From the NCBI RefSeq assembly GCF_003334385.1, contig NZ_QOWN01000002.1: DNA of 64,000 bases; one strand, written 5' to 3'. The stretch's first letter is position 1, and every line of letters starts with the position of its first letter. The stretch is from Escherichia coli (GTDB lineage Bacteria > Pseudomonadota > Gammaproteobacteria > Enterobacterales > Enterobacteriaceae). The notes under the pieces are model-generated. The model was not told the DNA's origin and searched no databases. It saw only the letters and a list, made by a program, of their open reading frames with translations. This document shows positions 23,227 to 30,137 of the stretch, piece after piece. The position numbers and the translations under genes are program-made.

Positions 23227-24015
23227 TTAGCCTATCTGCACCGACAGCATACTCAGGCTGCCCATTTCTATACCCTCAACCGGAATGGTAATTGGCTCCT
23301 GCCCATCCCACGCACCTAACACATACAACAACGGCAAATAATGCTCTGGCGTTGGGTTCGATAACGTGCCACCTTCATGGTCGAGGTAATTCACCAGAGG
23401 ATGTTGTTCCACTGGCCCTTGCCACGTCAGATTCGCTTTCACATACTCATTAAACGACGTCGCCCACGGATACGGTGAACTATCACCGTGCCACTTCACT
23501 GTGCGCAGGTTATGCACCACGTTACCGCTGGCGACCAACATTATTCCTTCATCTCGCAGCGCTGCCAGTTTGCGCCCCATTTCGAAATGCCAGGCGGCAG
23601 GTTTGCTACTGTCGATACTCAACTGCACCATCGGGATATCAGCGTCAGGATACATCTTAATCAGCACGCCCCACGAGCCGTGGTCAAAGCCCCAGGCTTC
23701 TTTATCCAGCGTCACCGGGATCGGCGCTAACAGCTCAACCAGACGCTGTGCCAGCGCAGGCGAACCCGGAGCAGGATAATGCGTATCGTACAGCGCCTGC
23801 GGGAAGCCACCAAAGTCATGAATCGTGGGCGGCGTCTCCATCGCGGTCACTCCTGTTCCACGGGTAAACCAGTGAGCCGAAACCACCACAATCGCTTGCG
23901 GGCGTGGCAATGTCATCCCCAACTTCTGCCAGCTGCGGGTATACAAATTATCTTCCAGCACGTTCATCGGACTACCGTGACCTAAAAACAATGCTGGCAT
24001 ACGTGTTGAAGACAT
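23227..24015 (-). CDS. ygiD: 4,5-DOPA dioxygenase extradiol-like protein; start trimmed to MSSTRMPALF (alternative 24042)
   Basis: ORF track frame; internal Met chosen by family length. Confidence 0.85.
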   Translation of the reverse strand: MSSTRMPALFLGHGSPMNVLEDNLYTRSWQKLGMTLPRPQAIVVVSAHWFTRGTGVTAMETPPTIHDFGGFPQALYDTHYPAPGSPALAQRLVELLAPIPVTLDKEAWGFDHGSWGVLIKMYPDADIPMVQLSIDSSKPAAWHFEMGRKLAALRDEGIMLVASGNVVHNLRTVKWHGDSSPYPWATSFNEYVKANLTWQGPVEQHPLVNYLDHEGGTLSNPTPEHYLPLLYVLGAWDGQEPITIPVEGIEMGSLSMLSVQIG

Positions 24016-24988: not shown

Positions 24989-25159
24989 TTATTCTACCTT
25001 TTCGGCTGTCTCTTCTCTCGTACTGTTTAAGTATTTGTTCCGCGCTTCAAGCAGTGCGTCTCTGTCCTGGCGAAACGCCCGACAATAACGTTTCAAATGC
25101 AGGAAATAACCCACCACAACCAGAGCAATCAATACAATCCAGTACCAGGCGATAAACAT
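24989..25159 (-). CDS. Small single-pass membrane protein, 56 aa (MFIAWYWIVLIALVVVGYFLHLKRY...)
   Basis: ATG at 25157-25159 preceded by AAGGG Shine-Dalgarno; N-terminal TM helix followed by basic residues; own terminator hairpin; not part of any listed longer gene. Confidence 0.55.
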   Translation of the reverse strand: MFIAWYWIVLIALVVVGYFLHLKRYCRAFRQDRDALLEARNKYLNSTREETAEKVE

Positions 25160-25357
25160 CCTTTTACCCTTAATATTTAACAATACTAAACATTTAGCGT
25201 ATAAATTTCACATATCCTTTTTCGGATATATTCATATGGTCGCATAATAACGGAACAATTATATGATTTTGATCATAATGAAAAAGAATGCCTGATATTA
25301 ATGAAATTTTCTCATAGAAAGAGAAGCGGAATTAACATCTTGCATAGCAGGGAAAAA

Positions 25358-25390
25358 TAAAAACCGAAGCCTGCTACAACTTCGGTTTCT
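25358..25390 (-). terminator. Rho-independent terminator downstream of ribB
   Basis: Hairpin AAACCGAAG...CTTCGGTTT with U-run in minus transcript. Confidence 0.55.
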
Positions 25391-25420
25391 TGATTAAGGC
25401 AGTAAATTAAGCAGCGGTTT

Positions 25421-26074
25421 TCAGCTGGCTTTACGCTCATGTGCCTGACGGTATGCCACCAGGTCTTCAATAGTCACGAGCGCCATATTGTGTTTATTGG
25501 CAAACTCAATACACTCTGGTGCACGCGCCATCGTGCCATCGTCATTAGTCAGCTCACACAGTACACCAGCCGGTTTAAAGCCTGCCAGCGTCATCAGATC
25601 AATAGTTGCTTCAGTATGACCGCCACGCGTCAGTACACCACCTGCCTGAGCGCGAAGTGGGAAAACGTGGCCAGGACGATTCAGATCTGACGGTTTTGCG
25701 CCATCGGCAATCGCTGCGCGAACGGTCGTAATACGGTCAGCGGCAGAAACACCGGTAGTCACACCTTCAGCTGCTTCAATGGTCACGGTAAAACCGGTGC
25801 CATAGGCGCTGGTGTTATTTTCTACCATCATTGGCAGATCGAGTTGTTTACGGCGATCTTCAGTAATGCACAGGCAAACAATACCGCTACCGTGGCGAAT
25901 GGTCAGCGCCATCTGCTCAACAGTCATGGTTTCTGCCGGGAAGATCATATCACCTTCGTTTTCACGGTCTTCATCATCAAGCACCATTACACCGCGTCCT
26001 TCACGCAGCGCAGCCAGTGCATTTTCAACACGTTCGAAAGGCGTACCAAAAGAGGAAAGTAGCGTCTGATTCAT
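25421..26074 (-). CDS. ribB: 3,4-dihydroxy-2-butanone 4-phosphate synthase
   Basis: ORF track; 217 aa. Confidence 0.96.
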
Positions 26075-26159
26075 GGTAAAAAAACCTCACTAAAATTATG
26101 GTTACCAGAATCAGGGCAGTCTTAGGAGTGGCGGCATATAGCCAAAATAACGTGAGCGG

Positions 26160-26325
26160 GTCCATGCCCGACAGAATCGTTACTCTCTCCCATCCGGACT
26201 CTAACCGTCGGCCCCGGAATTACACCGGATCTGCTGTCCTTTGAGTTCGCACCCAAAGCGCTCGCGGGCTTTCAACTGAGTTGATTTACCGCCGGTGGGG
26301 AATTTCGCCCCGCCCTGAGAATAAG
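26160..26325 (-). promoter_or_regulatory. sroG: FMN riboswitch (RFN element) in ribB 5' leader
   Basis: Minus-strand sequence contains conserved RFN motifs (…GGGGCGAAATTCCCCACCGGCGGTAAA…GGATGGGAGAGAGTAACG…) in the ~250 nt leader upstream of ribB. Confidence 0.8.
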
Positions 26326-26447
26326 CGGATTCACTATAACGCTAATGATTAGCGGCAGCAACGCATAGCTTCACATAATTCTGGTTTATGACTTACCCTT
26401 ATCGCACTACAATGGCACTCAACACCTATCAGTACAGGGAAACTACA

Positions 26448-26738
26448 ATGATTGACCCGAAAAAAATTGAGCAAATCGCTCGCCAGGTTCACGAATCAAT
26501 GCCTAAAGGAATCAGGGAGTTCGGGGAAGATGTGGAGAAAAAAATCCGCCAAACCCTACAAGCGCAGCTGACGCGCCTCGACCTTGTAAGCCGTGAAGAG
26601 TTCGACGTCCAAACGCAAGTCCTGTTACGGACTCGTGAAAAACTGGCGCTGCTTGAACAAAGAATCAGCGAACTGGAAAATCGCAGTACTGAGATCAAAA
26701 AGCAGCCAGATCCAGAGACTCTCCCCCCAACGCTGTAA
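26448..26738 (+). CDS. ubiK: Ubiquinone biosynthesis accessory factor UbiK (YqiC); start trimmed to [11 protein letters not shown]
   Basis: ORF track frame; ATG at 26448; 96 aa coiled-coil protein. Confidence 0.88.
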
Positions 26739-27021
26739 ACATTCGTCTTTAATGCACTGTAAATTATGAATTAATCCTCTAATTTATAGTGCTTTCTATT
26801 ACCTTATCGCGTAATCCCATTCAGAAAACCATCACAAAAATGAATGAGTACAATTGAAAGTATAATTGCAATGTATTTTTTAAGTTTTACTTAATCGATA
26901 TTTAGATAAACTAATTTTATAAAAAACACAAAATAAAATATCATATTTCAATGATTAGTAGTCCTTAAATAACAGTTACTAATCATTCTCTTTTCTACTT
27001 ATCTTTATATAAAGGAATATT

Positions 27022-27623: not shown

Positions 27624-30137
27624 GTGGATCAGATGTATAAAAAATTAAAATTAACCACAATAAGCGAATTGATTAAAAATATTTATTGTTCATTATCCGT
27701 TATCATCATTGGTTGTGCGTCAGCTTATGCCGTTGAATTCAACAAAGATTTAATCGAAGCCGAAGATCGTGAAAACGTTAACCTTTCCCAATTTGAAACT
27801 GATGGCCAATTACCCGTCGGCAAATATTCACTAAGCACTCTGATTAATAATAAGAGGACGCCAATCCACCTTGACCTCCAATGGGTATTAATTGATAACC
27901 AAACTGCAGTTTGCGTGACACCAGAGCAATTAACATTATTAGGATTTACTGATGAATTTATTGAAAAAACTCAGCAAAACCTGATCGATGGTTGTTACCC
28001 TATCGAAAAAGAAAAACAAATTACAACTTATCTCGATAAAGGGAAAATGCAATTATCCATATCTGCACCTCAGGCATGGTTAAAATACAAAGATGCAAAC
28101 TGGACGCCTCCTGAACTTTGGAATCATGGTATTGCTGGGGCATTTCTTGACTACAATTTATATGCCTCTCATTATGCACCACATCAGGGCGATAATTCGC
28201 AAAATATAAGTTCCTATGGGCAGGCTGGGGTTAATCTTGGGGCCTGGCGCCTGCGTACTGATTACCAGTACGATCAGTCATTTAACAATGGCAAAAGCCA
28301 GGCGACCAACCTGGATTTTCCGCGTATTTATTTGTTTCGCCCAATCCCAGCAATGAATGCAAAACTAACTATAGGTCAATACGATACTGAATCCTCTATT
28401 TTCGACTCTTTCCATTTTTCTGGCATTTCGTTGAAAAGCGATGAGAATATGTTACCGCCAGACCTACGTGGTTACGCACCGCAAATCACGGGTGTCGCAC
28501 AAACGAATGCAAAGGTCACTGTCTCACAGAACAACCGTATTATTTATCAAGAAAATGTTCCTCCAGGCCCATTTGCTATTACCAATTTATTCAATACATT
28601 ACAGGGGCAACTTGACGTCAAGGTTGAAGAAGAGGACGGACGCGTTACGCAATGGCAAGTTGCATCTAATAGTATTCCTTATCTGACGCGTAAAGGGCAG
28701 ATTCGCTACACCACTGCTATGGGTAAACCGACCAGCGTTGGTGGTGATTCCTTACAACAACCCTTCTTCTGGACTGGTGAATTCTCATGGGGTTGGCTGA
28801 ACAATGTATCCCTGTATGGTGGTTCAGTTTTAACAAACCGTGATTATCAATCTCTGGCTGCCGGCGTTGGTTTTAACCTTAACTCATTAGGTTCATTATC
28901 TTTTGATGTCACACGATCTGATGCTCAGTTGCATAATCAGGATAAAGAAACGGGTTATAGCTACCGCGCTAACTATTCAAAACGTTTTGAATCTACCGGT
29001 AGCCAACTCACTTTCGCTGGTTACCGTTTCTCTGATAAAAACTTTGTGACAATGAATGAATATATCAATGACACTAACCATTACACGAATTATCAGAATG
29101 AAAAAGAGAGTTATATTGTCACGTTTAACCAGTATCTTGAATCATTAAGGTTAAATACATACGTAAGTTTGGCTCGTAATACTTACTGGGACGCCAGCAG
29201 TAATGTGAATTATTCATTATCACTTAGCCGCGATTTTGATATCGGGCCATTAAAAAACGTCTCCACTTCTCTAACATTTAGCCGAATAAACTGGGAAGAA
29301 GACAACCAGGATCAACTGTACCTAAATATTTCGATTCCCTGGGGAACTAGTAGAACATTGAGCTATGGTATGCAACGAAATCAGGATAATGAGATTTCGC
29401 ATACTGCTTCGTGGTATGACTCTTCCGATCGAAATAATTCCTGGAGCGTTTCTGCTTCAGGCGACAATGATGAATTCAAAGATATGAAAGCGTCACTACG
29501 CGCCAGTTATCAGCATAATACCGAGAACGGTCGACTCTACCTCTCCGGTACATCACAGCGAGACAGTTATTATTCTCTGAATGCCAGTTGGAATGGTTCA
29601 TTCACTGCGACTCGCCACGGTGCCGCTTTCCACGACTATAGCGGTAGTGCTGACTCGCGTTTTATGATCGACGCAGACGGCACTGAAGATATTCCGTTGA
29701 ACAATAAACGCGCGGTAACTAATCGGTATGGCATCGGAGTTATTCCATCAGTCAGCAGTTACATAACAACATCATTAAGTGTTGATACCCGAAATCTGCC
29801 AGAAAATGTGGATATCGAAAACTCGGTTATCACCACCACCTTAACCGAGGGTGCTATTGGCTACGCCAAACTTGATACCCGCAAGGGCTACCAAATCATA
29901 GGGGTTATTCGCCTGGCAGATGGTAGTCATCCACCACTGGGGATTAGCGTAAAAGATGAAACCAGCCACAAAGAATTAGGACTGGTTGCTGATGGCGGCT
30001 TTGTATACCTCAACGGCATTCAGGATGATAACAAACTTGCTTTACGCTGGGGTGACAAATCTTGTTTTATTCAACCACCCAATAGCAGCAACTTAACCAC
30101 CGGAACGGCTATTTTACCGTGTATTAGCCAAAATTAA
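27624..30137 (+). CDS. yqiG: Fimbrial outer membrane usher, apparently intact (837 aa)
   Basis: ORF track; single uninterrupted ORF of usher size; no insertion sequence between ygiL and yqiG. Confidence 0.85.
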   Translation: MDQMYKKLKLTTISELIKNIYCSLSVIIIGCASAYAVEFNKDLIEAEDRENVNLSQFETDGQLPVGKYSLSTLINNKRTPIHLDLQWVLIDNQTAVCVTPEQLTLLGFTDEFIEKTQQNLIDGCYPIEKEKQITTYLDKGKMQLSISAPQAWLKYKDANWTPPELWNHGIAGAFLDYNLYASHYAPHQGDNSQNISSYGQAGVNLGAWRLRTDYQYDQSFNNGKSQATNLDFPRIYLFRPIPAMNAKLTIGQYDTESSIFDSFHFSGISLKSDENMLPPDLRGYAPQITGVAQTNAKVTVSQNNRIIYQENVPPGPFAITNLFNTLQGQLDVKVEEEDGRVTQWQVASNSIPYLTRKGQIRYTTAMGKPTSVGGDSLQQPFFWTGEFSWGWLNNVSLYGGSVLTNRDYQSLAAGVGFNLNSLGSLSFDVTRSDAQLHNQDKETGYSYRANYSKRFESTGSQLTFAGYRFSDKNFVTMNEYINDTNHYTNYQNEKESYIVTFNQYLESLRLNTYVSLARNTYWDASSNVNYSLSLSRDFDIGPLKNVSTSLTFSRINWEEDNQDQLYLNISIPWGTSRTLSYGMQRNQDNEISHTASWYDSSDRNNSWSVSASGDNDEFKDMKASLRASYQHNTENGRLYLSGTSQRDSYYSLNASWNGSFTATRHGAAFHDYSGSADSRFMIDADGTEDIPLNNKRAVTNRYGIGVIPSVSSYITTSLSVDTRNLPENVDIENSVITTTLTEGAIGYAKLDTRKGYQIIGVIRLADGSHPPLGISVKDETSHKELGLVADGGFVYLNGIQDDNKLALRWGDKSCFIQPPNSSNLTTGTAILPCISQN

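Follow-up and report, generated by a model that had tools for sequence, protein, structure and literature searches.

The ribB locus and its leader

The element described here lies in a 64-kb stretch of Escherichia coli DNA, referred to as the window, in which ribB is encoded on the minus strand and has ubiK (divergent), yqiD and zupT as its neighbours (Table 1). The product of the ribB ORF scores 287.7 bits with the NCBIfam equivalog domain TIGR00506, for which the cut-off is 177.45. Downstream, the gene is closed by an intrinsic terminator, beyond which the small RefSeq ORF yqiD follows directly (24989-25159, minus strand). A sub-threshold match to STnc240 on the terminator hairpin (25359-25390, minus strand; 29.1 bits versus 55) was treated as chance.

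Table 1. Features of the ribB locus in the window, with their positions in the leader RNA where applicable
Feature	Leader position	Window position	Strand	Basis or remark
ribB promoter -35, TTGCTG		26356..26361	-	Read from the sequence; conservation
ribB promoter -10, TATAGT		26333..26338	-	17-nt spacer from -35; 6 nt upstream of +1
Transcription start +1 (G)		26326	-	Published numbering
FMN aptamer (RFN element, P1-P6)	1-149	26178..26326	-	RF00050; covariation; PGAP riboswitch feature
Aptamer helix P1	3-10 x 140-147	26324..26317 x 26187..26180	-	
Putative anti-P1, 5' partner, UCAGGGCGG	9-17	26318..26310	-	
Anti*-P1, 5' partner (P1 3' strand), AGAGUAACG	141-149	26186..26178	-	
Platform hairpin H1, CGGGCAUGGACCCG	157-170	26157..26170	-	Predicted folds
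C-rich, G-poor stretch, candidate rut region	170-229	26098..26157	-	C/G ratio up to 2.0
First pause region	175 and 181	within 26144..26152	-	PMC11571811
Anti*-P1, 3' strand, CGUUAUUUU	175-183	26144..26152	-	PMC11571811; unconstrained MFE fold
Platform hairpin H2	184-197	26130..26143	-	Sequence varies between genera
Invariant box CUCCUAAG	199-206	26128..26121	-	Identical in 29/29 Enterobacterales leaders
Putative anti-P1 (anti-sequester), 3' strand, CUGCCCUGA	208-216	26111..26119	-	Complementary to UCAGGGCGG
Sequestering stem, 5' strand, CUGAUUCUGGUAA	213-225	26102..26114	-	MFE and every constrained fold; RNAalifold
Shine-Dalgarno, GAGG	239-242	26085..26088	-	Sequence; inside the loop hairpin of the sequestering stem
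Second pause region, just before the AUG	247-249	26078..26080	-	PMC11571811, PMC5234074
Sequestering stem, 3' strand, UUACCAUGAAUCAG, with AUG and codons 2-3	248-261	26066..26079	-	Folds; RNAalifold
ribB CDS, 217 aa, 3,4-dihydroxy-2-butanone-4-phosphate synthase		25421..26074	-	ORF list; TIGR00506; RefSeq
ribB intrinsic terminator, 13-bp stem then T-run		25350..25390	-	Terminator scan

The ribB promoter was read from the sequence, and its hexamers are maintained in related genomes. TATAGT is nearly invariant across Enterobacterales and is found at a fixed distance to the aptamer, and TTGCYG is kept, with constant spacing, in almost every one of the 27 alignable upstream regions from this order, while the spacer and the sequence upstream of the hexamers vary. 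A scan of 25300-26800 for consensus sigma-70 promoters returned none, the -35 element being missed because just 8 of 12 positions match. Leader positions are converted to window coordinates by subtracting them from 26327, and a transcription start at 26326 is the sole register that fits the published features: leader positions 141-149 and 175-183 then read AGAGUAACG and CGUUAUUUU, respectively, and C175, G176 and U181 agree with the published mutant positions. In this register the AUG occupies leader positions 253-255, the published 282-nt construct corresponds to the leader plus 10 codons, and the leader is therefore 252 nt long (numbering checked against PMC11571811). This agrees with the leader of about 250 nt in the original prediction, which had also attributed the long untranslated gap before ribB to a cis-regulatory RNA; the gap, between +1 at 26326 and the ribB start codon at 26074, is indeed the riboswitch leader.

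The region is identical to that of K-12 MG1655, with 0 mismatches over the 1,146 nt from ribB through leader and promoter into the start of ubiK. The 1.5 kb round the riboswitch is present in all 5,426 complete E. coli genomes; an identity of 99% or more is reached by promoter and leader (317 nt) in 5,391 genomes and by the surrounding 1.5 kb in just 1,570, so that the leader is more constrained than its flanks. An 'FMN riboswitch' feature assigned by PGAP in other E. coli genomes converts exactly to 26326..26178 of the window (L001 1975-2123), and the feature table of the curated MG1655 record (NC_000913.3; L122 6468-6719) contains neither a riboswitch nor an sroG feature in the ribB leader.

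Several differences between genomes were noted in passing. One of the 5,426 complete genomes carries a second, plasmid-borne copy of the ribB leader, and in two others an IS1 or IS5-family element lies within the 1.5-kb ribB-ubiK stretch. In the window, the fimbrial usher gene yqiG (27624-30137, plus strand) is an intact ORF of 837 aa, and in K-12 MG1655 it is interrupted by IS2; sibD and ileX each lie about 1.3 kb closer to ribB than they do in MG1655. The strain from which the window derives is therefore not MG1655, despite the identical ribB region.

The FMN aptamer

All Rfam families were searched with covariance models between positions 24000 and 28500 of the window, and the FMN (RFN) family RF00050 was matched on the minus strand at 26326..26178 over the full model (1-138 of 138), with 120.9 bits and an E-value of 7.8e-29 in this 4.5-kb scan; the gathering score of the family is 66.2. 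At gathering thresholds, the same match is the sole FMN match of the whole 64-kb window (E = 1.1e-27), and an origin by chance is excluded by the E-value. Sub-threshold matches to AdoCbl-II (26180-26248; 22.3 bits versus 36.5), snoZ105 and mir-999 were treated as chance. When the window sequence is threaded on the model, canonical pairs are formed at 27 of the 28 consensus positions, the sole exception being a G-A pair at the base of P4. All residues of the core junction fit the consensus with a posterior probability of '*', and the conserved junction nucleotides are all present, surrounded by the six helices P1-P6. The aptamer is located on the same strand as a riboflavin gene and in its 5' leader, with the aptamer's 3' end 103 nt before the ribB AUG.

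The original prediction, an FMN riboswitch in the ribB leader with conserved RFN motifs on the minus strand, is thus confirmed by the full-length RF00050 match, the downstream RibB, the PGAP feature and the identity with K-12, and the covariance-model search that it had proposed as a check was strongly positive. The interval given for it, 26160-26325, contains the predicted element, and only its bounds need correction, as it starts 1 nt short of the RNA 5' end and runs 18 nt beyond the 3' end of the aptamer; the complete regulatory element, that is aptamer plus expression platform, extends further, spanning 26326..26066. We consider it nearly certain that the 252-nt ribB leader is an FMN riboswitch of the RF00050 family, which provides feedback control of riboflavin synthesis. 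The element is already known: it is the well-studied ribB FMN riboswitch of E. coli, and in comparison with the K-12 element P1, anti*-P1, the pauses at 175/181 and 247-249, the sequestering stem and the AUG at 253 map one-to-one, with no difference inside the element.

Comparative analysis of ribB leaders

Species-representative genomes were scanned with a plain sequence pattern made from the conserved P2-P3 core, which yielded 120 loci; the P2-P3 core is hence invariant by construction. Among these loci, found by aptamer sequence alone, 44 of 120 have a RibB homolog within 1.1 kb downstream, and they represent several phyla. The leader of the window was aligned with 28 further ribB leaders from Enterobacterales (29 in total). 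From this alignment, RNAalifold recovered P1 to P4 together with a long stem that covers the start codon, and it mispaired the invariant P5/P6 region. A structure representing the FMN-bound state, in which the Rfam aptamer is combined with the sequestering stem and two hairpins of the platform, has standard pairs in 96.5% of the alignment cells, versus 37-51% when the partners are slid by 1-3 columns. Two-sided changes occur at 14 pairs versus 7.6 in shuffles, and none of the 500 shuffles reaches the observed values on any measure. The covariation is located in distal P3 (changes on both sides at 4 of 5 pairs), in P4 (6 of 8 pairs) and in the platform hairpins H1 and H2, so compensatory changes within the aptamer are provided by distal P3 and P4. 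P1, P2, P5 and P6 are either invariant or changed on one side only, and always paired.

The ribB leaders of Kluyvera genomosp. 1 (L059 9647-9987) and of a Pseudocitrobacter MAG (L106 4926-5332) are longer, with 311 and 377 nt, respectively, versus about 255 nt. The additional 60-120 nt fall within the aptamer and separate the P2-P3 core from the GGAUGGGAGA junction; neither leader differs in its platform or sequestering stem.

The expression platform

Downstream of the aptamer, three invariant blocks stand amid variable sequence in the 29 leaders: CUCCUAAG (199-206), GCCCUGAUUCUGGUAA (210-225) and UUACCAUGAAUCAG (248-261). The second and third of these contain the strands of a predicted 13-bp stem, 213-225 x 248-261, which holds the AUG and encloses GAGG in a loop hairpin; in the predicted folds the Shine-Dalgarno lies in this inner hairpin, formed by 230-235 x 239-244. 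In the alignment, 12 of the 13 pairs of the sequestering stem are invariant and the remaining one shows a change of AU to GU, so that the stem is 100% paired. Codons 2 and 3 of ribB (AAT and CAG), which are part of the stem, are invariant at synonymous sites in 29 species, and codons 4, 5, 7 and 10 vary, a pattern that suggests a constraint at the RNA level. A CUGAUUC/GAAUCAG stem preceded by GCCCUGA is also found in the ribB leaders of Rodentibacter (Pasteurellaceae), Vibrio and Desulfobacterales. According to per-sequence folds, the upper part of the sequestering stem differs between distant taxa, with AUG/CAU in Desulfobacter versus UGGUAA/UUACCA in enterics, which suggests that this part may covary over larger distances. 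In RNase H assays, probe 218, directed against the strand 218-227, is protected by FMN (PMC11571811).

In the stretch that separates aptamer and sequestering stem, two smaller hairpins are predicted. H1 is paired in 93.6% of the cells and has GC-to-AU double changes at one pair within Enterobacterales, and H2 shows two-sided changes at 3 of its 5 pairs among the 29 leaders. The H2 region becomes more open to RNase H in the presence of FMN (PMC11571811). The loop of H1 contains the ATG of a 46-codon ORF (26165..26025) that is out of frame with ribB and overlaps its start, an arrangement that could point to control by a leader peptide through translational attenuation. This start codon, however, is present in just 8 of the 29 Enterobacterales leaders, where no other upstream ORF is conserved either; since the start codon is unconserved, we regard the leader-peptide explanation as effectively refuted.

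The terminated product of the ribB leader is the sroG of the E. coli catalogue. The leader is listed there under this sRNA name, which is also used for constructs and deletions, and premature termination would free a fragment containing the aptamer. It could accordingly be argued that the main product of the locus is a free sRNA, SroG, which acts in trans, and that it lies upstream of ribB only by coincidence. However, the conserved parts of the platform fit a role in cis, as the stem covers the AUG of ribB itself and the GCCCUGA box has its complement in the aptamer, and the linkage of aptamer and ribB in 44 of the 120 loci is maintained in several phyla. In addition, deletion of the leader derepresses ribB in cis (PMC9885008), and no trans target is named in the literature found on the ribB leader. 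A primary function in trans is hence very improbable, and a cis-acting riboswitch is much the better explanation of the conserved platform.

In contrast to the sequestering stem of the FMN-bound state, two further helices are reported for the FMN-free state, both of which involve strands of the aptamer. The first, anti*-P1 (141-149/175-183), has been described together with mutants (PMC11571811); about 90% of its cells are pairable in the 29 leaders, and the changes are one-sided only. The second, anti-P1, is published as engaging the 5' extremity of the aptamer and competing with the sequestering stem. Its exact pairs would be 9-17 x 208-216, as judged from complementarity and predicted energies, since the two segments form their most stable predicted duplex in this register (-18.6 kcal/mol). 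In the alignment, 99.2% of the anti-P1 cells are pairable with no double changes, and the changes of U-A to U-G also keep the sequestering stem paired. Within Enterobacterales, a search for two-sided covariation found none in the sequestering stem, in anti-P1 or in anti*-P1, all of whose strands are either invariant or changed on one side only. The three helices are thus supported by conservation and by the compatibility of the substitutions with pairing, rather than proven by covariation.

This switch is not captured by thermodynamic folding. Most of the sequestering stem is retained both in the unconstrained MFE fold (-88.1 kcal/mol) and in the fold in which anti-P1 is enforced (-82.7 kcal/mol). 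The putative anti-P1 pairs overlap just the lowest 4 pairs of the stem, and folding shows no release of the AUG; nearest-neighbor folds keep most of the sequestering stem in every state, and the unmasking of the AUG is therefore not reproduced in silico. The MFE of the leader is not below that of shuffled sequences (z = -0.48), and the plain MFE structure misses P1, P5 and P6; this z-score says nothing against a riboswitch because tertiary and ligand energies are left out of the model. The platform structures are not yet clear according to the authors of PMC11571811.

A further feature of the platform is the invariant CUCCUAAG box. Its CUCCU (199-203) is complementary to GGGAG in J6/1 of the aptamer (leader 136-140, 26191..26187), and in the unconstrained fold the CUCCU/GGGAG helix stacks on anti*-P1. 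We found no mention of the box in the sections of PMC11571811 consulted. Tentatively, CUCCUAAG could represent an extra, undescribed anti-aptamer helix of the FMN-free state, or else the core of the rut site, although we consider this proposal rather doubtful. If true, either reading would be a refinement of what is already described, not a novel type of element.

Proposed mechanism of FMN-dependent control

The aptamer match, its context, the identity with K-12, the conservation and covariation and the sequestering stem come from the present analysis, and FMN binding, Rho dependence and the transcriptional pauses are reported in the literature for the identical sequence. In the proposed mechanism, transcription begins at 26326 from a sigma-70 type promoter, and the first 149 nt of the leader fold into the six-helix FMN aptamer. 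Binding of FMN would close P1, by which the 5' and 3' ends of the aptamer would be barred from alternative pairings. The stem 213-225/248-261 would then form and bury the AUG and the Shine-Dalgarno region, so that translation initiation would be blocked, and the C-rich platform (~170-229) would be exposed, leading to Rho termination in the platform or the early coding region. Without FMN, the 3' strand of P1 would instead pair with 175-183 (anti*-P1) and the 5' segment of the aptamer with the GCCCUGA box (anti-P1), a box shared in part with the foot of the sequestering stem, and ribB would be transcribed and translated. Sensing is co-transcriptional, with the pauses at 175/181 and 247-249 as its bounds.

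In RNase H probing of nascent RNA, FMN has been found to protect the P1 3' strand, with a Kswitch of 176 nM, and the sequestering strand 218-227, with a Kswitch of 206 nM (PMC11571811). FMN is sensed most effectively by the complex paused at position 175 (23 nM) and poorly at the position-247 pause, which defines a transcriptional window for the response to FMN (PMC11571811), and the pause near the start codon is lengthened by FMN (PMC5234074). In vivo, deletion of 223 bp of the leader leads to derepressed riboflavin production (PMC9885008).

No intrinsic terminator was found in the ribB leader by the terminator scan, and this absence fits Rho-dependent control. Termination within the leader that depends on both FMN and Rho has reportedly been obtained by Hollands et al. 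2012, as cited, with purified components and no ribosomes. RNAP occupancy data identify ribB as Rho-dependent, with a termination score of 3.1 and loss of control in the rho R66S mutant (PMC5499598). With reference to Hollands et al. 2012, ribB has been classed as an example of direct control through exposure of a rut site, which is placed in the expression platform, as are the termination sites, upstream of any translation (PMC5499598; PMC11571811). The candidate rut region would lie within the C-rich stretch of the platform, to which we assign its extent from base composition and which contains the CUCCUAAG box. This stretch, the occurrence of anti*-P1 in the unconstrained MFE fold and the higher modelled unpaired probability of leader positions 150-212 in the FMN-bound fold are all consistent with the published mechanism.

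An alternative to direct control is that the riboswitch acts purely at the level of translation and that Rho termination is indirect polarity arising from the untranslated ribB message, with no leader rut exposed by FMN. Indirect control of this type is established for thiM of E. coli (PMC5499598), no other element of the platform is conserved as strongly as the sequestering stem, and the modelled gap in accessibility between the two folded states is modest, the unpaired probability of leader positions 150-212 being 0.57 in the FMN-bound fold versus 0.43 in the FMN-free fold. Against this stand the published classification of ribB as direct, with its termination sites in the platform, and the finding that FMN opens leader positions 184-193 (probe 184) to RNase H in nascent RNA free of ribosomes (PMC11571811). 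We therefore consider purely indirect control unlikely, if less so than an action of the leader in trans, and favor a mechanism in which FMN both masks the ribB start and exposes the platform to Rho.

Related riboswitches and significance

The ribB leader shares its aptamer family (RF00050), its ligand and the logic of riboflavin feedback with the founding RFN element, that of B. subtilis ribD, for which sensing has also been described as kinetically driven and pause-assisted (PMC11571811). The two differ in their platforms: ribD uses an intrinsic terminator and antiterminator, whereas E. coli ribB combines sequestration of the Shine-Dalgarno and AUG with Rho (PMC5499598; PMC11571811). The consensus core is shared with the FMN aptamers of known crystal structure (Serganov et al. 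2009 and Vicens et al. 2011, cited in PMC11571811); the distal loops of P3 and P4 are of other length and sequence, and they vary likewise within Enterobacterales. With respect to the platform, ribB resembles Salmonella mgtA, which responds to Mg2+, and the TPP riboswitches of E. coli thiC, thiM and thiB, in that control is translational, Rho lowers the mRNA and a pause is found near the start codon (PMC5499598, PMC5234074). The aptamers and ligands of these systems differ from those of ribB and, in contrast to the direct rut exposure described for ribB, thiM uses Rho indirectly via the loss of translation (PMC5499598).

As the sequence is that of the K-12 leader, which has been dissected by several laboratories, the window adds nothing new to the description of this riboswitch. 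The value of the assignment is one of annotation only, in that it accounts for the 252-nt untranslated gap upstream of ribB. The leader is the single FMN-sensing control point of E. coli riboflavin synthesis and also a target of roseoflavin-type antibacterials.

Other RNA genes in the window

Further RNA genes were detected in the window. Two tandem SIB RNA genes (RF00113) on the minus strand, at 35023-35172 and 35398-35547 (147.7 and 142.1 bits, respectively), correspond to sibD and sibE of K-12, and the ibsD and ibsE toxin ORFs are located on the opposite strand according to the K-12 annotation. The sib/ibs genes form type I toxin-antitoxin pairs. ARAGORN reported a tRNA-Met with the anticodon CAT at 55870-55945 on the plus strand, a position that matches ileX of K-12, which codes for tRNA-Ile(CAU); the tRNA-Met label is probably the usual miscall of a lysidine-modified isoleucine tRNA. 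Finally, naRNA4/CssrE (RF02564) was matched at 43467-43537 on the minus strand with 79.3 bits versus a threshold of 59.5 and, judged by its position, this match probably lies in the cca-bacA intergenic region.
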